Of a stretch of 64,000 nt of DNA, positions 4,666 through 47,760 are shown piece by piece (within the stretch, counting starts at the first letter, position 1; the number at the start of each line of letters is the position of its first letter). Both the position numbers and the translations under genes were made by a program. The notes below the pieces were generated by a model, which saw only the letters and a list, made by a program, of their open reading frames with translations, did no database searches and was not told the DNA's origin. This DNA is from Callorhinchus milii (taxonomy: Eukaryota). The stretch is from the NCBI RefSeq assembly GCF_018977255.1, contig NW_024704743.1:14200001-14264000 (forward strand), given 5' to 3'.

Positions 4666-5276
4666 AATATAGTTCCTACCTGACAGGGGGAGCTCTAACA
4701 CTAGATATTAGGGATCTCATTAAGTACTGCCGAGGCTACAGAACGGACTTGAGCTTTCTGAGAAAACTGTCAGGTCCTGAACCAGTTGAACTCACAAAAA
4801 TATTTTTAAACCCAATCAAAAATGTTTAGCAGTGCACCTTCAATGGCTCAGTATCCCGGTTAACCAAGTTTATGATGACAAAGAGTTTAATTGCAAAATG
4901 CACAGTCATATTTCCTGAGGCAGTTTAACAGCACATCCCAACATTTATATCCATAGGAACAGCATTGCCATTCGGCCCATTTTTTCCAGTCATGTTTGCT
5001 CTTCCGAGGGCCATCCATCCTAATCTCAATCTCCTTCTCTTTCCCTGTACCCCTCTAATACCCGTGTTTGACTATTCTTTAAGTACCCCCATCAACAATT
5101 GAGAGGGAAAGGAAGCGGTGGAGAAGTAAATTATTTTTGTTTGGTGACATTTTTATGGAAAGTCAGCTCTGAGCTGGGCTTGTAAAGCATTGTGTACATT
5201 CCCATTCCAAACAATTGCTCTCAAGAGGGTAAAATTTGCTATATATAAAGTAAGATTGAAAAACAGGTTGCCTTGG

Positions 5277-6025
5277 TGTAAGAGTTAATTTATTTTCATG
5301 ACCCTGCAGTGAAGTAAGGACTGACACAAATGTTGAACAATTAATCAAGATTTATTAATTCAGATTAATAATGGTTATAAATAATTTAGAAAATACATCT
5401 AATTCTGCTTATGTATCCACGTATACTAGAGTTCACAATGATTTGAGTTGACCAACCAAATACTGTGGGAGAGATAGGGAAGCAATGTAAATCCTCAAAA
5501 AAAATTTCAAGTAATGTTGTGCGGTTCCCAGTTCGATACCACCCAAAAGTATCCAGGTATTATTGTACGTTTAGAGCTGTTTAACTCATAGTCTTGAACT
5601 TCCATCTTTGGAAGCTGGAATATGGTTTGTGGCTCCAGGTTCCAATTTCTTCTTCCTCTTTCGAATTGATCTCCGTTTATAACGTTGATTAGGTGACCTT
5701 TCGTCTTTTTCAAGATGGTTCCTTTGTAAAAACCAAATGCAACACAGTTCTCTCCAGCTGCAGACCATTTTTCCATGAGAAAATGACTGATAAGGAATGA
5801 AAACAGTTTGTTGCTTAAAACAGTCTTTTGTTAAACGTTGACTCACTTTCCTTTCTCCATAGATGCTGCCTGACCCGCTGAGTGTTTCCAGCGATTTCTG
5901 TTTTTGTTTTCAGATTTCCAGCATCTGCAGTATTTTGTATTTTCTTTTGTTTCTCCAGGTGATATACATACAAATATAATTTGAGATATTATTTAACACA
6001 TTAATTACAGACATGACATCCTACA
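5277..6025 (-). repeat. 3' LTR of the provirus (contains a 110-bp Penelope-type insertion)
   Basis: Aligns to 12489-13170 (tgtaagagttaatttattttcatgaccctg ... atcctaca); preceded on the minus strand by a weak PPT-like agggtgac. Confidence 0.9.
5833..5942 (+). mobile_element. Penelope-like terminal fragment inserted into the 3' LTR
   Basis: aaacgttgactc...gatgctgcctgacccgctgag...tttccagcatctgcagtatttt, absent from the 5' LTR; TSD tcttttgtt at 5824-5832 and 5943-5951; homologous to 8413-8522. Confidence 0.75.
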
Positions 6026-6866
6026 GTCACCCTGAAGTGGGTTAAGGTTATAAACGTAAATCTACTTTTATTACTGTAATTAGTGTAAAATTTGTACCGT
6101 TCTCCTCTATCTCTTTCACCGCATTCGATCTCCAACCTATATTAACATTTTTATGATTCTTAATTGTTCATAAAACATTTTACATCTTTTTTTTATCTGA
6201 CACATATCCAATAATTACAGTAAATCATTATTAATAACTCTATAAATACAAATAAATTAGCAAGGTTATACTTGTATTACCACTAAAAATTATAAAATAT
6301 TACTTCAGTGGGTGTTCCCTTTTTTTAGGGAAAATATCTATCTTATAAAATTCCCAATAAATGTAACCATATTTAATTTTAATTTATACCAACATCACTT
6401 TGATTAAATACTGGAATACATAAAATAAATGATACATAACAGAAATTAGAATAACTGAAGTAATATTAAGATGTTTGACACAATAACATTTATAACAATT
6501 AAAAACTACTATAATCTGAATGTGTTTGACATTAATGATTAGTGTACTTTTCTCTCATACCTATCAATGTTTACCCTGTTGTTTTGCGCTCAAGTCACGT
6601 GTCCCAAATTATATGGTCTTATCTGTAATTTTATGCAGACCCCCATATTCTCTAACTATTGCTCACTTTGTTTATCTTTTACCTTGCTATTATTACGTAC
6701 ATATGGAACATGGATGTGATCTGGCTTATACTCCACCACGGTCCTCTTTTTTAACATATAAATGACATAAACATATAAAGACAGCCTTCACTTTGTTTAC
6801 TTGCTTTTGTAAATTTTAATTGCTACTAGCTTATGCTAAATCCTATACTAACGTCTTACGTCTTGG

Positions 6867-8110
6867 GAGATGCGGGGTGGCCCTCATCTCCCAAACTTCC
6901 TTTGGTCTATCCCCCTATTCCTTTGGCTGTTTCTCCTCCTACCATCCCTCCTCTCTCTCCCTCAAAATCCTCCTAGTTTACCGACCGACCAGAAACCTCC
7001 TGGCTCCTTCCTCACTGATATTTCCTCTCACCTTTCATCCTTATCCCTCTGCACTGAACACCTGCTCATAATGGGTGATTTTGTGCTCCACCTAAGCTCC
7101 CCTTGCAACACCTCCTCGGATTTCACTGCCCTCCTCTCCTCCCTAAACTCCCTCCACATCAACTCGCCAACCCACAACCGTGGCCACTCCCTCAACCTCG
7201 TCATCACACGTGGTCTTGACATTTCTGACTTGTCAATCACGGACAAAGCCATCTCGGACCACTTCCTCATCTCCCTCTCCTCCTGCATCCCCCTCCCCTC
7301 TTCCAAACCCTCCACCATTTTTTTCCCCCCCAGGAAAAAGCTTCTCTGAGTCCCTTAAAAATGCCCTCTCCTCCTCAGATCTCCTCTCCCTCTGGCCCTC
7401 CAACCACAGTGATCCTGATACAGCCGTCAAGCTGCTGATGACCGTCTCTCCACAACCTTCAATTCCCAGCTCCCCTGAAATCCAGGATTGTTTCCAAACC
7501 CACCCGCTCCCCCTGGTACAACACTCATCTCTGCTCACTCAAACCACAAACCCGGATGCTTGAGCGCAGATGGCAGAAATTTGACCTCATGATTCACCGC
7601 CAGCTGTGGCTCGAGCACCTCCTCACCCACCGCCTCTCCCTTTCAAAGGCCAAAACTGACTTTTACTCCAAAGTCATCCTGGAGGCAAACAAGAATTCAA
7701 AGATGCTGTTTTTCACTGTCCATCACCTCCTCCGTGCAGTCCCTCAAGCTCCCTCTATCCTCACGTCAAATGCCAAGTGCGAAGAGGTCCTAGACTTCTT
7801 TACCTCAAATGGCTGCATCGTCCTCCCCCCCATGCCCCCTTCCAGATCATCCACACTGCCTTCTCCCTCCGCAACGGCTCCTGCCATTCCCCTCTCCTTA
7901 CACTCCTTTGCCTCCATTTCTCCCTCCTCCCTCTCAACTACAATCACCCGGATGAAGTTCACCACCTGCTGCCTCTACCCCTCCCCACCCAGCTGCTGGT
8001 CACTCAACTCGCCCTTCTCTCCCCCTTGTTGGCCGACACAGTCAACCAGTCTCTCTCCTCAGGCTCTGTTCCACTCCCCCTGATAACCGCTGTCTTCACA
8101 CCCCTCCTAT
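6867..8110 (+). mobile_element. L2 LINE ORF2 fragment (APE endonuclease C-terminal half and linker), nested in the provirus
   Basis: GVALIS...LLVYRP...LLIMGDF...PTHNRGHSLNLVITRGL...SDHFLI; LERRWQK; closely similar to 28310-29280. Confidence 0.88.
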
Positions 8111-8138
8111 TGACCCGGACCAAACTCCGTATCCACAT

Positions 8139-8522
8139 TTTACCACATCATCTTGGTCCCAGACACACCTTTTCTCTCTGGTCTGCCTATTTTGTTGCAA
8201 TCTTTCCTCCCCTTTGTTCTGCAGTATTAACCCCTGTTTTGTTGCAATCCTTCCCTTTGTTTTGCATCATTAACACCTTCTTAACCCATCATCCCCTGTC
8301 CTCTACCTCATTTCTCCTTTGTCTTCCTTGCCCTGTCTCCCCCCTCTCTGTTAGTCCTTAGAAGCCTCTCCCTCCCAACATGCCCCAGTTCTGACAAAAG
8401 GTCATGGACCCGAAAAGTTGACTCACTTTTCTCTCTCAATAGTTGCTGCCTGACCCGCTGAGTGTTCCCAGTGACTTCTGTTTTTGTTTCAGGTTTCCAG
8501 CATCTGCAGTATTTTGTGTTTT
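8139..8522 (+). mobile_element. Penelope-like element end with decayed hammerhead motif, nested in an L2 3' fragment
   Basis: Imperfect 12-bp TSD ccgtatccacat (8127-8138) / ccatacccacat (8523-8534); CTGACAA-aa-ggtc-atg-gacc-c-GAAA at 8391-8415. Confidence 0.65.
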
Positions 8523-8579
8523 CCATACCCACATCTCACCAGTTCTGGCCGGGCCTCACTGGCACCGAACGGATCGACT

Positions 8580-8893
8580 TAATAATAATAATAATAATCC
8601 TTGCATTTGATATAGCGCTTTTCACGTCGGGAGGACGTCCCAAAGCGCTTCACAGAACACACTGTAAAGTGAATTGACTGTATATTTGTGGGCGAACGCG
8701 GCAGCCAATTGCACACAGCAATATCCCACAAACAGTCGTAGATTGAAAATGACCAATTTATTATTGTTTTTGGTTTTGGAGGGATTATTATTAGGCGTGT
8801 GGAGTAAGGAAACTTGCCCAAGGTTTCGCCCTGCCTGGAATTGAACTCAGGTCTCTTGCTTGCAAAGCGAGTGCTCTAACCTACAGGACTCCA
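8580..8893 (-). mobile_element. tRNA-Ala-derived SINE, near full length
   Basis: Head gtggagtcctgtag..., Deu-like core gctgtgtgcaattggctgccgcg, L2-type tail and (TTA)n. Confidence 0.9.
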
Positions 8894-8894
8894 C

Positions 8895-9232
8895 GATCCT
8901 CCCTACATCTCCGACCTTGTCACTCCCCAATCCACCACCAGGCGCCTCCGCTCGACTGGCGCCGGCCTCCTGCTCGTTCCTCGCACCCTCCGCCCCACCA
9001 TCGGAAGTCGTGCTTTCAGCCACTACGCCCCAAAACTCTGGAACACTCTCCCTCAATCCCTCCACCTTGCCCCCTCTCTCCCCTCTTTCAAATCCCCACT
9101 GAAAACTTTCCTCTACGACCATGCTTATGGCCACCTCCCCCCTCCACCCGACTCAGAGTCAGGCTTCGTCACTGTTCAGCGCTCTGAGACGCTACCCTGA
9201 GTGGAGGGCACTATATAAGTAGAAGTTGTTGA
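8895..9232 (+). mobile_element. L2 3' end
   Basis: tttcagccactacgcccc...aactctggaac...; tail gcgctctgagacgctaccctgagtggagggcactatataag. Confidence 0.85.
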
Positions 9233-9696
9233 TTGTCTTTTTCACAATTTAACAAAAAGGGTAATACCTTATGCTCAGGTATTCTCATGGATCGTTCAGT
9301 CACAACGTCCTGTGGGGAAAATATTTTATTTAGGAATTCAGATTGCTCTTTTCAACAAATAGTTAGGGAGGGCCCTGAGTCGACCAATTCTATGCAATAA
9401 TAATAGACCTATAATAGACTTCAAACTCATGCTGTTGCTGTTGGCCCTCCCCAAATATTAATTTGAAGGGTCACAATATACCCCATAGAGACCTTAGAAA
9501 CTCATCATGCCTGTCATATGAATTTAGAGATCAATTTGTGTTTTTTGATCAGTTTAATCTTGTTTAAATTTGGCTTGCTCTTTGGCTCTTTGATAGCCAG
9601 GTGATATATATATATATTACATATATAAAATGTAAATGCCCCTGATTGCTGTTTGTATTCTACAAATTTTCAAAAAAACTCTTGATTATTACTTTT

Positions 9697-9872
9697 AATA
9701 ATAAATTGGTCATTTTCAATCCACGACTGTGGGACACTGCTGTGCGCAATTGGCTGCCTTGTTTCGCCCACAAATATACGGTCAATTGACTTTACGCCAT
9801 ATTCTGTGAAGCGCTTTGAGACGTCTAGAAGACGTGAAAAGCGCTATATCAAATGCAAGTATTATAATTATT
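9697..9872 (+). mobile_element. SINE 3' part, inserted in the provirus
   Basis: aataataaattggtcattttcaatccacgac...gagacgtctagaagacgtgaaaagcgctatatcaaatgcaag. Confidence 0.85.
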
Positions 9873-10169
9873 AAAAATTCTTTTATCAAACTTAATTTCG
9901 TTTTCAATCATCTCTTCCATCTTTTTTTTTCCAAGCTTTTTCCTCTGTAACATAAAAAGAAAAGTTAAATTATCCTCCCTGTTTTATTTGGGGTGATTTC
10001 AGGAATCTATTATTTATTGATTTTTATAATGAACCTTTGCGTCCTTGTGTCCTTCTTTCTCTTACTGGGATGTTGATCACATCCCAAACATGTCTTCTGT
10101 TCTTCAGTTTTTTCCCTCGTTCTACTTCTTAACTGAAATATCATTCCTCCCTGATCTATTGCTGTTGAT

Positions 10170-11972
10170 GTTATATCACAGCAATGAGTATCTCCGTCAT
10201 ACAGTAAATTGTTAGCTAAAAATCACAGAGACATGGAATGTTGTTTCGTCCTTGAAACAACAAAGTTCATCAAGCCAGACGGACATTTGATACGGATCCA
10301 TCTTTTAATCGACCATCTAAAAGTAATTCTGTTGGGGTGTAATTGGTTAACAAAACCATAGGTGATAAACTAACAATTTATTCAAAATGTTGCACAGTCC
10401 AAAAAGTGGCTAAAATGTTTTTCACATTTTTAAAAATTTAATCCTACAGGAGTCAATACTCTGGATGCTATTGGACATAGTTTATTATGCTTGTGCTGTA
10501 ATGCAACTGCTGAAATAGCGAAATCTGTGTCTGCTACTTCTAAATAAAAGGTGCTTCCCTTTCTGGAGCTTGCAAAGTAGACGTTTACGCTAAAGCTTGT
10601 TTTAATTTTTGTACTGCTTCAGTACAGGCTGGCGTCCAATTCCATTCAGCATGTTTTCGTAACAAAGCATAAAGGGGAGCACTTAGAGTAGCAAAATCTT
10701 CAATAAAATCCCTGCATCCCCTACCAATCCTAAAAAGCATCTCAATGCTGTGACAGAAGTTGGCCAGGGTAAGTGCTTAATAATCTGTATTTTATATTCA
10801 TCAGGATTGTGACCACCTTTACCAATTTGGATTCCTAAAAATGATACAGTCTGCTCAGAAATCTATGCTTTCTTAGGATTTACTTTTAATCCTGATGTAC
10901 AGATCAATTGTAACAGCTTTGTCAACAATTGTTCATGAGTCTCCATGTCAGGCAGGCGTGTAATAATAAATCATCAACATAGTGAATGATTGCAGTAGGT
11001 TGGCTAAGGCGTGCTATCACTTGAGCCATTCTTTGATGAAATTTGACGGAAAGTTGTGAAATCCCTGGGGTAAACATGTCCATGTGTATTGGTTGTGAAA
11101 AGTAAAAGCAAATTTGTACTGACAATCATGATGAAACGGAACAGACCAGAACCCATTTGATATGTCAAGTGCAGAAAATACTTTTGACTGAGGTGTAGTT
11201 CTCTTGAGCACATCTGGTGCAGACACCAATGTCGAGAACAACATTGCGTGTATTGATTTAATCTCCTCTGATCTATTATGAGTCGCCATGAACCATCTGG
11301 TTTTCTAACTGGCCAAATGGGAGAATTATTAGAGGTTGCAATCCTTCTTAAAATACCTGTTTCAATAATGAGATTATAGTGGCTTGCACAGGTGCATCAA
11401 CTTCCCAAGGATAGGAATATTGCTCCTGCTGATGTGGGGAATCTTTTCCAATGATGTTAACATGTCCTGCTAACTTTCCACAAACGTGTTTGTGATTTGC
11501 GAAAACAACATTATTAGTGGTTAGTATGTTAGTAATGTTAACATTGTCATGTGTCAACACTTTCTTTAAATCAAACCCTTTATTGCATAAACAGCTCCAT
11601 GATCTGTTATTTTATTTCAAATATATGTGTCAGGTTTGGCACTTTTAACTTGCCATAGTAGTTTGTTTGCAAAGTCAATTATCAAATTATATTTATTCAT
11701 CAGATCTGCACCAATAATGTTTAAATTGGCTGGCGTGTTCATCAAAATACATGGCCATTTAATTTCTAAATATCCAATTTGAAGAGGAATTGGAATTGAC
11801 TCCACCCCATATTGACAATTGCCTGTAAACCCACCTAATTGAGTAACTGTTTCAGATGTGAATTTTGTGGGTCTTTTTCATATATAACAGTTTGAGAGGC
11901 ACCAGTACCCCATAACAATAGGTTCCGATGGCCTCCTATCGCAACATTAATACATGGTCTTCCATGATTATC
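10170..11972 (-). pseudogene. pro-pol remnant: aspartic protease, reverse transcriptase and connection/tether domain, frameshifted
   Basis: GRPCINVAIGGHRNLLLW(G)TGASQT (catalytic D mutated), NIIGADLM, NNSPIWPVRKPDGSW, FSALDISNGFWSVP, YTWTCLPQGFHN, HYVDDLLL (10981-10970), GLKVNPKK, LRCFLGLVG, PFYLEV, ending LLYDGDTHCC. Confidence 0.92.
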
Positions 11973-12180
11973 AATTTCTACTGGGCACATTATCTCAGTT
12001 GAAGCCTCTATTTGTCAATCAATGCCCCCATGGACTCTATCTCCTCCTTGTATGTTATACATCGGAGGAACACCAGGTACTGCACTTGGCTGTCTATGAA
12101 AAGCTTTCATTTCAGCTCGCAGCTTTCCGACCTTCGGCAACCATGTCTTTTAGATCTAAACCAGCACTTTTCTCTTCATG

Positions 12181-12224
12181 TCTACAATATTTTGTCATAT
12201 GTCCCATTTTACCACAATTCTCAC
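12181..12224 (-). pseudogene. gag remnant: nucleocapsid CCHC zinc knuckle
   Basis: Minus strand reads (x)ENCGKMGHMTKYCR = [C]x2Cx4Hx4C, with the first Cys disrupted by an indel. Confidence 0.7.
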
Positions 12225-12473
12225 TTTGACTTCTACCTCTCTAGCCAGTAAATGAAGGTCCCTATGAACATTAGCCACAAAATGGGATCAGACAATATCT
12301 GATAATATATCCAATTATACAGGACATAATAGTGGCTGGCCGTTTAATTTAATCTCCGTACAATTAACTCCACCCCATCAGCATACACCAACAATCAAAC
12401 TCCAACTTAATAAACATAACTTATCAAATTACACCAATACTTACTTTCTAAATGATATTAAACATTTGTATTT

Positions 12474-12488
12474 ATCCCACTTCAACAA
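12474..12488 (-). promoter_or_regulatory. Degenerate primer-binding site, tRNA-Leu type
   Basis: Minus strand directly after the 5' LTR reads TTGTTGAAGTGGGAT; the complement of the vertebrate tRNA-Leu(CAA) 3' end is TGGTGTCAGAAGTGGGAT. Confidence 0.6.
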
Positions 12489-13170
12489 TGTAAGAGTTAA
12501 TTTATTTTCATGACCCTGTGGTGAAGTAAGGACTGACACAAATGTTGTACAATTAATCAATGTTTATTAATTCAGATTAATAATAGTTATAATGAATTAA
12601 AAGAATACATTCAATTATGCTTACATATCCATGGATACTGTAGTTCACAACGATTTAAGTTGACCAAACCAAATGCCACGGGAGAGATAGAGGAGCAATG
12701 TCCAATTTAATGTCCCATTTGAATGCAAATATAAGTCTTCAAAAAATATTAGTATTGTTATGCTGCTTCCAGTTCGATATCACCCAAAAGTATCCAGGTA
12801 TGATTGTACATTTAGAGTTGGTTATCTCATAGTCTTGATCTTCCCCCTTTGAAAGCTGGAATATGGTTCGCAACTCCAAGTTCTAAGTTCTTCCTTCTCT
12901 TTCGAATCTATCTCCGTTTATACCATTGATTAGGTGACCTTTCACTTATTGTTTTTTGCAAAATGGGTTTTCATGAGAAAATGACTGATAAGGAATGAAA
13001 ACAGTTTGTTTATAAATAGCCTTTTGTTTCTCCTATTTGAGCAAAGATCTTCTTTGAAGCTAGTCACAACCAATTCCCCTCACATGAGGTTGATCATATG
13101 TCTCAAATATATAAACATCGCAAATATAATTTGAGATATTATTTAACATATTAATTACAGAAATCCTACA
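12489..13170 (-). repeat. 5' LTR of the provirus
   Basis: Paired with 5277-6025, roughly 85% identical by eye over the first 200 nt, with reciprocal CA/TG differences typical of CpG decay. Confidence 0.9.
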
Positions 13171-13357
13171 CTTGGAAGGAGAATAGAGAACAAAAGATAA
13201 AATAACACAATGGGTAAAAATAACGGGCTGAATATGTGATGTATTAATTAATACATCATTGATAATTCTACCCCGTCACATTCATTAGGAGTGGACCAGT
13301 CAATCAGTTTACTGCATTTAGAAGTTGTGCTGCAGGAGAGCTATGTTCAGGTATTGA

Positions 13358-18399: not shown

Positions 18400-18711
18400 A
18401 ATACTAATCCTTGTATTTGATATAGAGCTTCTCACGTCTTCTAGACGTCCCAAAGTACTTCACAGAGTATACTGTAAAGTGAATTGACTGCATATTTGTG
18501 GGCGAACGCGGCAGCCAATTGCGCACAGCAATGTCCCACAAACAGTCGTAGATTGAAAATGTCAATTTATTATTGNTTTTTTTTGGAGGGATTATTATTA
18601 GGCGTGTGGAGTAAGCAAACTTGCCCAAGGTTTCGCCCTGACCTGCCTGGAATTGAACTCAGGTCTCTCGCTTGCAAAGCGAGTGCTCTAACCACTGAGC
18701 TGCAGGACTCC
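18400..18711 (-). mobile_element. tRNA-Ala-derived SINE, full length
   Basis: Near-identical to 22332-22640; contains an ambiguous base N at 18576. Confidence 0.9.
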
Positions 18712-22331: not shown

Positions 22332-22640
22332 ATAATCCTTGCATTTGATATAGCGCTTTTCACGTCGGGAGGACGTCCCAAAGCGCTTCACAGAACACAT
22401 TGTAAAGTGAATTGACTGTATATTTGTGGGCGAACGCGGCAGCCAATTGCGCACAGCAATGTCCCACAAACAGTCGTAGATTGAAAATGACCAATTTATT
22501 ATTGTTTTTGGTTTTTGGAGGGATTATTATTAGGCGTGTGGAGTAAGGAAACTTGCCCAAGGTTTCGCCCTGCCTGGAATTGAACTCAGGTCTCTCGCTT
22601 GCAAAGTGAGTGCTCTAACCACTGAGCTACAGGACTCCAC
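22332..22640 (-). mobile_element. tRNA-Ala-derived SINE, full length, young
   Basis: Minus strand GTGGAGTCCTGTAGCTCAGTGGTTAGAGCACTCACTTTGCAAGCGAGAGACCTGAGTTCAATTCC (A and B boxes) through to the L2-like tail. Confidence 0.92.
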
Positions 22641-37535: not shown

Positions 37536-37842
37536 GTGGAGTCCTGTAGCTCAGTGGTTAGAGCACTCGCCTCGCAAACGAGAGACCTGGGTTTGATTCC
37601 CGGCAGAGCAAAACCTTGGGCAAGGTTCCTCACTCTGCACGCCTAATAATAATCTCTCAACAAAAACAATAATAAATTGGTCACTTCAATCCACGATTGT
37701 TTGTAGGACACTGCTGTGCGCAATTGGCTGCCGTGTTTTGCTCCAAGTGTTCAGTCAATTCACTTTACAGCATATTCTGTGAAGTGCTTTGAGACGTCTA
37801 GAAGATGTGAATAGCACTATGTCAAGAGCAAGGATTATTATA
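37536..37842 (+). mobile_element. tRNA-Ala-derived SINE, full length
   Basis: gtggagtcctgtagctcagtggttagagcactcgcc... through aggattatta. Confidence 0.9.
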
Positions 37843-43130: not shown

Positions 43131-43704
43131 AGTTGCTTTCTTAATGGAAGGATTATTTTTCAGTGCCTTTCACGTTAGAATGGACATATCCATTAGCATA
43201 GGATTTCAGAGGAATAGCAATAAGAAACCATGTCAAGTAGAAAGGGTAATAGTTGATCAATAAGACAAGACAAGATGTAGCAGGACTTGAACGAGGATCC
43301 ATTGCCAGATGCTTCAGTGTCCGACATGAGTGCAAATCACTACAGTAAAGATGAAAGATATGTAGGCAGTACATTTTCTTGCCATTTAATGGCACTCTCC
43401 ACTCTCACTCTGTTTTATCAATATTCTTATGATCATTGGATCTTTCTTTCTTCCCAAAATCGTATTCCTCCTGGCACAATCTCTAACTAAGTATTTCTTT
43501 CCCAGGACCTCAAAGATATGAAACAGGTTTCCAGGAGTGTGGTGGACTCATTTAAAACTCAGTTAAATGTTGGGATCAGAGGATGGCTGGGCCTATATTT
43601 TGGAGGGATGAAAGGATCTATTTTATCCAAACTGATCTCGTGAATTCCTTAAATAGTCAGTGTAATACTGTTTAACAGATTAAATTGTTTTACTCTTTCT
43701 ACAG

Positions 43705-45572
43705 AAAAACAAGCCTCATTCGATGGCCTGTTGAATGACTTAAACAGCGAGTCTCAGGAAAACAGTTTACGAGCCACGTATCCACCAGGAGGACGTGGCA
43801 CTTGTGGAAAATCTTTGTTAGCACCAACTAGTCACAGTACTTCAGTCCACAACAATCACACTATCCATTCAGAGATTAATCCTGCAAAACCCAAGGTAGT
43901 GACAGTGGTAAAGGCAGGCAGGCAACCATACAAGAAGATAACAATTCTCTTGAATAGACGCTGTATGCAGACCTTTGAACAGCTTATTGCTGATATATCA
44001 GAAGCTTTGGGTCATCCCTGCTGGAAAAGTCAATCAGTGAAAACGCTGTACACTTTGAAAGGGAAAGAAATAAGAAGTGTTTCTGACTTCTTCAGAGGAG
44101 ATGATATGTTCATTGCTGCAGGGAGAGAGAAGTTGACTATGGTAGATGTACAGGACGTTTTAGAAGAACTTTATCCTGACAGTCCATGTGCCCAGAGCCT
44201 GATTCAACAACAATGGTTTCAGTCTCAGAAACCTTATAACAAATGCAGTGATAAGAAGGGATCAAAGGCAGATGAGCCTGAGCTTTCCAAACCTATTGGC
44301 AGTGTTAAATCTGCAAGACAAATAGCTAAAAACATAGAGAAAGTCAGAGCCACAGTCAGAAAACAAGAAAGAGAAAAGGCTCGGAAATGGGAACAAGAGA
44401 GAAGCGAGAGAGAGAAAAGAGAACTGTCCGAGAAACAAAAAGAGAAAGAGAGGATACAGAAAAAAAACCCAAGCTTTAATGCTGACAGAGAGATTGAAAA
44501 GTGTAAGATCAATAAAAGAGAGGTGAAGCAAAAGCAAGAAGAGATGAAACGAGAGATCAAGAATGACACAGGAACATGCAGAAGTGAGTGCAGAAGAACA
44601 AAAGATGAAATCAAGAGATTTTGGGTCCCAGAACTTGAAGGGGAAAAAGAGAAAAGGGAAAAGGGAAGTGATCAAAACTTGCTTTATGAGGTTGAAGAGA
44701 AAGAAAGAGAATACACAAGGAAAAGCAGAGGGAAGAAGTTGGATGCTGAGCGAGCACAGCCGCTAAATAATATAAAAGAGGAAAAGAAGCAACTGAAAGA
44801 CAGGAGCAGGTTGGTGAAAGTGGAATCTGAAAGGTGGCAAAATGGGAAACTGCGATACCATGAACAGGTAGATAATGATGAAGAGGAAGAAATATATAAT
44901 CATCCAGAAGGCTTACTGAATGAAGAAGATGAAAACTATAAAAATGCAAAACAGGAGAATCAAAAGGATGAAAGAAAACAATATTGTGGACAACAAAAGC
45001 TAAGGAATAAAGAAGACCAAAGGTGGAAAGATATGGGATGCAAAGAAGCTCAAAGCCAACCTCCGAGTACTTTTGCTGTAGAAAAAATTATAATCAGAAA
45101 AGACAATGATACTCAGTCAAGGGAAACACATATGCTCACATCAAAACCACAACAAACCATACCTCAGAGAGAAATCGAGAGTTATTATGAGATTGGCAGT
45201 ACTATTGGGGATGGCAACTTTGCTTTAGTAAAGGAATGCAGGCTTAGGAATACAGAAGAGTGGTACGCAGTGAAAATCATAGATAAAGCAAAGATAAAAG
45301 GAAAAGAAGATATGATTAAAAATGAGATTGCAATTGTAAAGAGCATTTCACATCCTAATATTGTGAGGTTTATTGAAGAGTTTGAAAGTGATACTGAGAT
45401 ATACATCATTATGGAGTATGTTCATGGAGGGGACCTATTTGACGCAATTACAGAAAATGTTAAGTTTACAGAACAATGTGCCGCCTTCATGATAACCAAT
45501 CTTTGCAAGGCCTTGGCATATATCCACAGTAAGAACATCGTACACAGAGATATGAAACCAGAAAATCTTTTG
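43705..45572 (+). CDS. DCLK3: DCLK3 large coding exon (1868 nt): single doublecortin domain, charged linker, kinase subdomains I-VIb
   Basis: Acceptor tttactctttctacAG ends at 43704 (phase 1); donor TTG|GTAAGT at 45573 (phase 0). Translation has KPKVVTVVK...LLNRRCMQTFEQLIADISEALG...LYTLKGKEIRSVSDFF (DCX) and IGDGNFALVKEC...AVKIIDK...GGDLFDAI...HRDMKPENLL, recognisable as vertebrate DCLK3. Confidence 0.96.
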
Positions 45573-45609
45573 GTAAGTAGCATGTCAATTAAACTTTTAG
45601 TTTTTTGGA

Positions 45610-45789
45610 CAGGGTGGTCCAATCTTTTGGCTGCTGAGGGCCAGATGCCCTATTTGATAAACATCTGGGGACCACATAAGCAGTGATTCTATTCCAGAAT
45701 CATAACATACTATTTACGGGTTATGGAGGGAACAGGTGGGCCAGATGAAATTGGCCCGCGGCTGGATGCAGCCCAGTTGGACCACCCGG
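45610..45789. mobile_element. hAT (Charlie-type) non-autonomous DNA transposon / MITE
   Basis: TIRs CAGGGTGGTCCAA and TTGGACCACCCGG; internal gagggcca and ggcccgcgg motifs; right flank GTCTAGAC fits the NTCTAGAN target, left flank degenerate. Confidence 0.7.
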
Positions 45790-47445: not shown

Positions 47446-47760
47446 TGGAGTCCTGTAGCTCAGTGGTTAGAGCACTCGCCTTGCAAGCGAGACACCTGGG
47501 TTCAATTCCAGGCAGGTTGAAACCTTGGGCAAGTTTCTTTACTCCACACGCCTAATAATAATGCCTCCAAAAAACAAAACAATAATACATTGGTCATTTT
47601 CAATCCACGACGGTTTGTGGGACACTGCTGTGCACAATTGGCTGCCGCGTTTGCCCACAAATATACGGTCAATTCACTTTACAGTCTATTCTGTGAAGCG
47701 CTTTGAGATGTCGAGAAGATGTGAAAAAGCGCTATATCAAATGCAAGGATTATTATTGTT
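47446..47760 (+). mobile_element. tRNA-Ala-derived SINE, full length, intronic
   Basis: gtggagtcctgtagctcagtggttagagcactcgccttgcaagcgag...gggttcaattcc. Confidence 0.92.

Follow-up and report, generated by a model that had tools for sequence, protein, structure and literature searches.

Introduction

The described systems closest to the element reported here are endogenous retroviruses (ERVs) of the same host, Pol proteins of frogs and coelacanth, the snakehead retrovirus and the lokiretroviruses. The element is a decayed provirus in a 64,000-nucleotide stretch of the Callorhinchus milii genome (contig NW_024704743.1, positions 14,200,001 to 14,264,000 of the forward strand), hereafter the window. 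CmiERV lineage I (PMC4422223) shares with the family of this provirus its host, a reverse transcriptase (RT) clade, an in-frame UGA between gag and pro, a CCHC Gag and a tether plus RNase H, but differs in RT sequence (50-52% identity), in having one zinc knuckle against the family's three, and in carrying an env. Its long terminal repeats (LTRs) have diverged by 0.033, compared with 0.09-0.15 in the family, which makes the family approximately three to five times older than the CmiERV lineage I provirus. Its primer site is presumably of the Ser type, whereas that of the family is Lys.

Among named proteins, the nearest to the family are frog and coelacanth Pols labelled 'NYNRIN-like' (P0002, P0003, P0004, P0007; 55-63% over the RT query), which have the same domain order but differ in their open frames, and are known here as Pol proteins only. 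The snakehead retrovirus, from the broad group named clade Huo (PMC6001957, PMC12193657), resembles the family in RT motifs, RT identity (42-44%), an in-frame gag stop and a CCHC Gag; it differs in having a single knuckle, UAG as the gag stop, accessory frames and a long env, and by an integrase that stands apart (p = 0.019). Lokiretroviruses (PMC7947760) have a dual RNase H and an integrase of similar type, but a common RT clade is rejected, and the family lacks their PFG motif and fusion-protein-like env. Odin (PMC9040795) matches the family in its dual RNase H and absence of env.

The element at positions 5277-13170 (minus strand) is a real, dead, internally deleted provirus. It very probably belongs to an old ERV family of the CmiERV lineage I, frog and coelacanth group, within the early-branching canonical retroviruses (the snakehead-retrovirus-like grade), that likely lacked env and amplified intracellularly in germ cells. 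It is a distinct family within a known grade of retroviruses.

Sister copies and family anatomy

An initial annotation, made from the letters of the window, had proposed searching the host genome with the LTR and RT. Searches with the LTR and with internal sequence recovered sister copies from which the anatomy of the family could be assembled. For the LTR, 40 of 319 candidates were scored and gave 41 matches (80-100% identity), among them those of the window; for the internal sequence, 40 of 59 candidates were scored and gave 86. One sister, L031, has both LTRs and a 4-bp target duplication. In L031 and L038, open frames as they stand in the genome (24 scanned) matched the Pfam families zf-CCHC, RVP, RT_RNaseH_2, RNase_H, Integrase_H2C2 and rve. 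Both the tether and the second RNase H were found by Pfam in L031; the window copy retains the tether only. Three complete tandem CCHC knuckles are present in L033, and two complete knuckles with a damaged third in L031 and L035. In the window copy the CCHC Gag of the initial annotation is not confirmed, as only the tail of a single knuckle is left there, without the first Cys; the complete knuckles are those of the sisters.

Deletion breakpoints near L031 positions 2947 and 3098/3173 were common to 8 of the 13 mapped sister loci. Such sharing is the pattern expected of a helper-dependent subfamily, and we infer from it that a subfamily with shared deletions may have been copied by helper elements. 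Internal inversions were also observed in several sisters (among L038, L040, L042 and L043), and three of this group near G000:C1:13.27-13.33 Mb look like segmental duplicates. A metagenome scan for relatives with DNA context confirmed none among 176 stretches, and in the ESM Atlas a capsid-region fragment stayed under the recognition threshold and gave no lead.

Placement of the reverse transcriptase

Trees were built from 99 rows (RT core), 65 rows (RT plus tether, after removal of 34 rows) and 59 rows (mixture model), and a fourth, of 33 rows, served for approximately unbiased (AU) tests under LG+G4. P0009 and L125 were recognized as the snakehead retrovirus because they match the sequence that PMC7947760 gives for it in its supplement; the other virus labels rest on that supplement or on general background, and the lokiretrovirus labels on a PFG motif matched to it. 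L014/L097 corresponds to the published CmiERV scaffold-2 (lineage I) provirus, according to the supplement of PMC4422223 and two short motif matches, which fits the elephant shark as the very probable host.

All four RT trees placed the family among canonical retroviruses and outside lokiretroviruses, foamy viruses, class I and Gypsy. In the 65-row tree it fell within canonical retroviruses at 100/99, and outside lokiretroviruses (100/100), foamy viruses (100/100) and Gypsy; the mixture-model tree supported the canonical placement at 92. That tree also recovered a 19-row clade of the family with L014 and Xenopus, frog and coelacanth Pols (Shimodaira-Hasegawa-like approximate likelihood ratio 98). 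Grouping with CmiERV lineage I received 90 in the 99-row tree, and the 65-row tree gave no resolution on this point. The AU tests rejected the family with lokiretroviruses (p = 0.0005) and with foamy viruses (p = 0.0097), and allowed its clade with the snakehead retrovirus (p = 0.69). RT identities are 55-61% to frog and coelacanth, 50-52% to CmiERV lineage I, 42-44% to the snakehead retrovirus, 33-37% to lokiretroviruses and 32-34% to foamy viruses. The closest database proteins were the 'NYNRIN-like' Pols and Pols from unnamed assemblies. The model of one frog Pol, P0004, ends in a stretch that by eye resembles a signal peptide and an immunoglobulin domain and on which Pfam is silent; it may be a gene-model fusion.

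The suggestion of an early-branching retrovirus in a cartilaginous fish was right; the RT trees put the family in the snakehead-retrovirus-like grade. The initial annotation had named nesting of the RT within a described Gypsy or ERV clade as evidence against its own reading. This is partly the case, the clade being that of CmiERV lineage I (PMC4422223), yet 50-52% RT identity marks a separate family. The broad group is the clade Huo of PMC6001957, and in PMC11089739 most cartilaginous-fish ERV RTs fall in clade III, so such elements are common. No description of the family was found in the literature searched, Repbase, Dfam and most subscription papers being outside that search, and RT fragments of it may stand among those in the supplements of PMC4422223, PMC5512871 and PMC6001957.

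With regard to a Ty3/Gypsy retrotransposon, three CCHC knuckles, the absence of env and automatic database labels on the relatives (e.g., 'Gypsy retrotransposon integrase-like') would fit, but the dual RNase H and an RT on the retrovirus side at 100/100 leave this reading scarcely credible, in agreement with the initial annotation.

A foamy-like ERV, equivalent to the CmiFLERV of PMC5512871, is a further candidate. The RT motifs first read as foamy-like do not favor it, as they are also found in the snakehead retrovirus. Foamy viruses make a 4-bp target duplication, which fits the 4 bp of the family, as does their Lys primer, and the best solved-structure matches in the Protein Data Bank for RT, RNase H and integrase were all foamy, with no snakehead or lokiretrovirus Pol among the bank's hits. 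However, the RT is rejected from the foamy clade by the AU test given above, and the family has a CCHC Gag and an in-frame gag-pol, neither of which is a foamy feature; spumaviruses are described as lacking a Gag zinc finger (PMC2717909). Moreover, four other elements of the host (L150, L151, L166 and L167) form the sister group of foamy viruses, CmiFLERV being known here by description. A Spuma protease profile was silent on the genome, but so was its control, which makes that result uninformative. We consider a foamy-like identity very unlikely, and the initial annotation was right that this is not a foamy virus.

The window provirus and its decay

The paired LTRs reported for the window are present, both TG...CA, with CTTGG on either flank, and the provirus between them reads as follows.

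13171..13175, no strand: right copy of the target-site duplication, CTTGG (family norm 4 bp)
12489..13170, minus: 5' LTR, 682 bp, TG...CA
12470..12488, minus: primer-binding site position; about 26 nt with the sisters' tRNA-Lys(UUU) site deleted, a Leu-like stretch now adjacent to the LTR
12248..12469, minus: leader and very start of gag
12018..12247, minus: what is left of gag after loss of about 1.25-1.4 kb near 12228-12247, with the end of the third CCHC knuckle (12184-12216) and the Gag tail
12015..12017, minus: UGA in frame at the gag-pro junction, with CAA next to it downstream; putative readthrough site
11430..12014, minus: disrupted protease and linker, the catalytic motif at 11895-11918 having been lost (sister L031 matches Pfam RVP)
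10620..11425, minus: reverse transcriptase, broken
10171..10619, minus: disrupted tether, a degenerate RNase H; at 10171 a deletion of about 2.0 kb has removed RNase H and integrase
10025..10170, minus: pol C-terminal tail, a frame without shared stops up to L031 position 6038; lower limit approximate
9874..10024, minus: post-pol non-coding region, part 1
9697..9873, no strand: later insertion, a short repeat that recurs many times in the window
9235..9696, minus: post-pol non-coding region, part 2
6858..9234, plus: later insertions, long interspersed element (LINE) fragments and short repeats; Pfam silent on the 6852-8131 frames
6026..6857, minus: post-pol non-coding region, part 3, with a weak purine-rich tract at its end, before the 3' LTR
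5277..6025, minus: 3' LTR, 749 bp, interrupted by a repeat near 5833-5944
5272..5276, no strand: left copy of the target-site duplication, CTTGG

The minus-strand Pol motifs of the initial annotation are likewise all there, at 11895-11918 (LLWGTGAS), 11286-11324, 11146-11169, 11053-11082, 10970-10981 (YVDD) and 10178-10207. Decay of Pol was assessed with a frameshift-aware method, after plain tblastn projections that crossed frameshifts were discarded, and RT plus tether carry 6 stops and 7 frameshifts. The two LTRs are 86% identical over 501 well-aligned columns (Kimura two-parameter distance 0.15), and the LTR pairs of two sister proviruses have diverged by 0.09 and 0.10. Later insertions account for approximately 2.7 kb of the element; the LINE fragments among them we take to be L2/CR1-like. 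The deletions at the primer site, in gag and across RNase H and integrase are private to the window copy. An absolute age was considered and dropped, as the rate in PMC4422223 would give ~200-350 million years, a value that we distrust.

Comparison with the sisters altered three readings of the single copy. The tRNA-Leu primer site of the initial annotation is an artefact of decay. At this site the window matches host tRNA-Leu(CAG) at 11 of 18 positions and tRNA-Lys(UUU) at 7 of 18, whereas a tRNA-Lys(UUU) site stands directly behind the LTR in 12 of 16 sister leaders (15-17 of 18 positions; three of the twelve are identical and likely represent one duplicated insertion), with 13 of 18 in one further leader and no site in three. 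A Leu-like stretch lies ~22-26 nt downstream in the sisters (in L031, 15 of 18 for Leu, ~22 nt downstream of the LTR-adjacent Lys site), and it abuts the LTR in the window because the ~26-nt deletion took out the Lys site. Similarly, the foamy-type W before the protease Asp is private decay: the window copy has no catalytic motif, and in a scan of 11 loci the motif was located in five sisters, each of which has (L/F)LDTGAS. Finally, the 5-bp duplication CTTGG is present on both flanks but atypical. Among 33 LTR loci, 16 lacked an end; of the other 17, six had a perfect 4-base duplication, six matched at three of four bases and five had none, so that 12 of 17 are perfect or near for 4 bp, and a five-base duplication was seen in 0 of 17.

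RNase H and integrase

The family's integrase is 45-51% identical to frog, coelacanth and CmiERV lineage I integrases, 39-46% to those of lokiretroviruses and 29-33% to those of the snakehead retrovirus, foamy viruses, class I and Gypsy (31-32% to the snakehead retrovirus alone). In a 28-row integrase tree the family fell outside a group of class I, foamy, snakehead and class II sequences (95/95), in a poorly resolved base with lokiretroviruses, and clade tests allowed both a grouping with lokiretroviruses (p = 0.305) and canonical monophyly (p = 0.341). RNase H fell on the foamy and lokiretrovirus side with a weak support of 91.

These results bear on the proposal that the provirus is a lokiretrovirus or an Odin-like element, raised in the initial annotation. 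The integrase and, weakly, RNase H give it a lokiretrovirus-like flavor, and to this extent the idea stands; the tether and second RNase H would fit, and so would the absence of env, as in Odin (PMC9040795). Against it, grouping of the RT with lokiretroviruses is rejected, the family reads PQG where lokiretroviruses read PFG, no fusion-protein-like env is seen, and lokiretrovirus-type elements of the same genome fall elsewhere in the tree. Odin was compared by description only; its anatomy fits, but the RT is off the lokiretrovirus side. We therefore give this identity little credence. A slowly evolving ancestral domain may explain the lokiretrovirus-like integrase as well as exchange does. 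It is possible, although we put this forward only tentatively, that the family belongs to an under-described slow grade of shark, coelacanth and frog elements combining a canonical RT with an ancestral lokiretrovirus-type integrase and RNase H. The family would then stand closest, among canonical retroviruses, to the lokiretrovirus split, on a branch that became env-less with a three-knuckle Gag and possibly used readthrough of the type I (CAR-YYA) kind of plant viruses.

The region after pol

In a stretch of approximately 1.7 kb downstream of pol, every one of the six phases contains stops common to 60% or more of the copies (38, 43 and 51 in sense; 35, 39 and 30 in antisense; 2087 columns, median depth 13), and the longest gap between shared stops is 276 nt. 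The control region, RNase H-integrase, has one phase free of shared stops. GC content is 32% after pol versus 38% in pol. Six env queries scored 27-41 against 28-50 for shuffled sequences, although of six control loci just one gave a score with the env control. Pfam on 21 frames found no env families, which is a weak test, and an env like the Mononegavirales fusion protein was not found either (queries at shuffle level, shared stops in six phases). The env of canonical Retroviridae was not observed in the family. Together, the shared stops in all six phases and the shuffle-level scores suggest that the family likely had no env and amplified without an envelope.

Env loss is known in endogenous lineages. 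Among them, ERV-L is an env-less class III retrovirus multiplying inside cells, and we suggest, by analogy, that the family works in a similar manner. In other features the two differ: ERV-L has a tRNA-Leu primer, a 5-bp duplication, no CCHC and the motifs HYIDD and ANAFF, whereas the family has Lys, 4 bp, CCHC, YVDD and SNGFW. An env-less snakehead-like element has also been reported from a frog transcriptome (PMC4131045).

Alternatively, the lineage may be the same but infectious, its divergent env having decayed beyond recognition or its env-less copies having been carried by an env-bearing helper. The post-pol region is env-sized (~1.7-2.1 kb), CmiERV lineage I carries an env (TLV_coat), and the envs of this grade are diverse, that of the snakehead retrovirus being without a Pfam match. 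The six-phase stops with their short gaps and the lower GC speak against a hidden env, and no longer variant was present among the 40 candidates scored. We regard this alternative as improbable.

Nonetheless, our preferred placement, an env-less family of the snakehead-retrovirus-like grade, needs to be interpreted with caution, as several observations weigh against it. The snakehead retrovirus itself shifts position, with no resolution in the 65-row tree and a place with class I at 98 in the mixture-model tree, and an integrase clade of the family's grade with it is rejected (p = 0.019). The panel was without ERV-L, Odin, named fish foamy-like ERVs and CGIN1/NYNRIN, and the best structural matches were foamy, as noted above. 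The env homology searches are weak, given that the snakehead Env has no Pfam match and that the control rang in one locus of six. The sampled copies (40 candidates scored per search) may also all descend from an env-deleted founder, with env-bearing relatives existing. Deep retroviral nodes are weak, as PMC8922424 warns, and the present trees share this weakness.

Probable readthrough and a possible mode of amplification

In seven independent copies gag and pro are separated by an in-frame UGA, as they are in other host families of the grade, which suggests that Pol was likely made by readthrough. The type I context CAR-YYA is exact in 3 of the 7 copies and within one mismatch in all seven, with the last positions differing among copies. 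In non-coding DNA of the family, 2 of 205 stops matched exactly and 7 of 205 within one mismatch, a chance level of 1-3%. The stop contexts of the other host families in the grade differ, and a 2026 review (PMC13517186) describes type I readthrough as absent from animal viruses. We therefore treat the motif as a candidate type I signal only.

Judging from sequence, the family would have expressed Pol by readthrough of the single in-frame UGA before the protease, formed particles that re-integrated without leaving the cell, and so multiplied inside germ cells like a retrotransposon, with helper elements perhaps copying the deleted subfamily. In the window copy, later deletions removed the primer site, the greater part of gag and RNase H plus integrase, and LINE and short interspersed element (SINE) insertions accumulated; through these losses and gains it is now immobile.

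Other elements in the genome and the window

Four elements on small contigs (L099, L154, L201 and L206; G000:C364, C466, C771 and others) have RTs grouping with lokiretrovirus-type sequences (100/100 in the 65-row tree, 99 in the mixture model), long open frames, a dual RNase H and a downstream frame that by eye resembles lokiretrovirus Env. Given the size of these contigs, they may be contamination. PMC7947760 names no cartilaginous-fish host of lokiretroviruses. L150 (G000:C5:60.47 Mb), L151 (C4:78.47 Mb), L166 (C2:12.28 Mb) and L167 (C2:75.24 Mb) represent two lineages that join foamy viruses at 100 in the mixture-model tree; they are likely the CmiFLERVs of PMC5512871, for which they are better candidates than the window family. 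At least four further, younger-looking families (L004, L008, L017, L019, L020, L022, L029 and L014) fall together with CmiERV lineage I in a single clade whose sister is a Xenopus Pol (100/100, 65-row tree). L010 (G000:C3:51.09 Mb) represents a further retroviral RT lineage that branches deeply, and in three trees nothing in the panel was closely related to it.

Within the window, a large exon at 43653-45683 (plus strand) encodes a doublecortin and a protein kinase domain and is presumably DCLK3-like; the provirus is ~30 kb upstream on the opposite strand. Four tRNA-Ala predictions (18639-18708, 22566-22635, 37540-37611 and 47450-47519) overlap copies of a short-repeat family and are likely the heads of tRNA-derived SINEs.

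Implications

Decay in a single copy can fake diagnostic features, here the primer site, the protease motif and the duplication length. The family joins the region of the retrovirus tree that is resolved least well, where it likely represents an independent case of a retrovirus turning retrotransposon, with a helper-dependent subfamily. If the slow-grade reading is true, it would argue for rate differences and not for repeated domain replacement. If the integrase signal holds, the intact relatives in frogs and coelacanth would make the point at which canonical retroviruses and lokiretroviruses parted directly testable.

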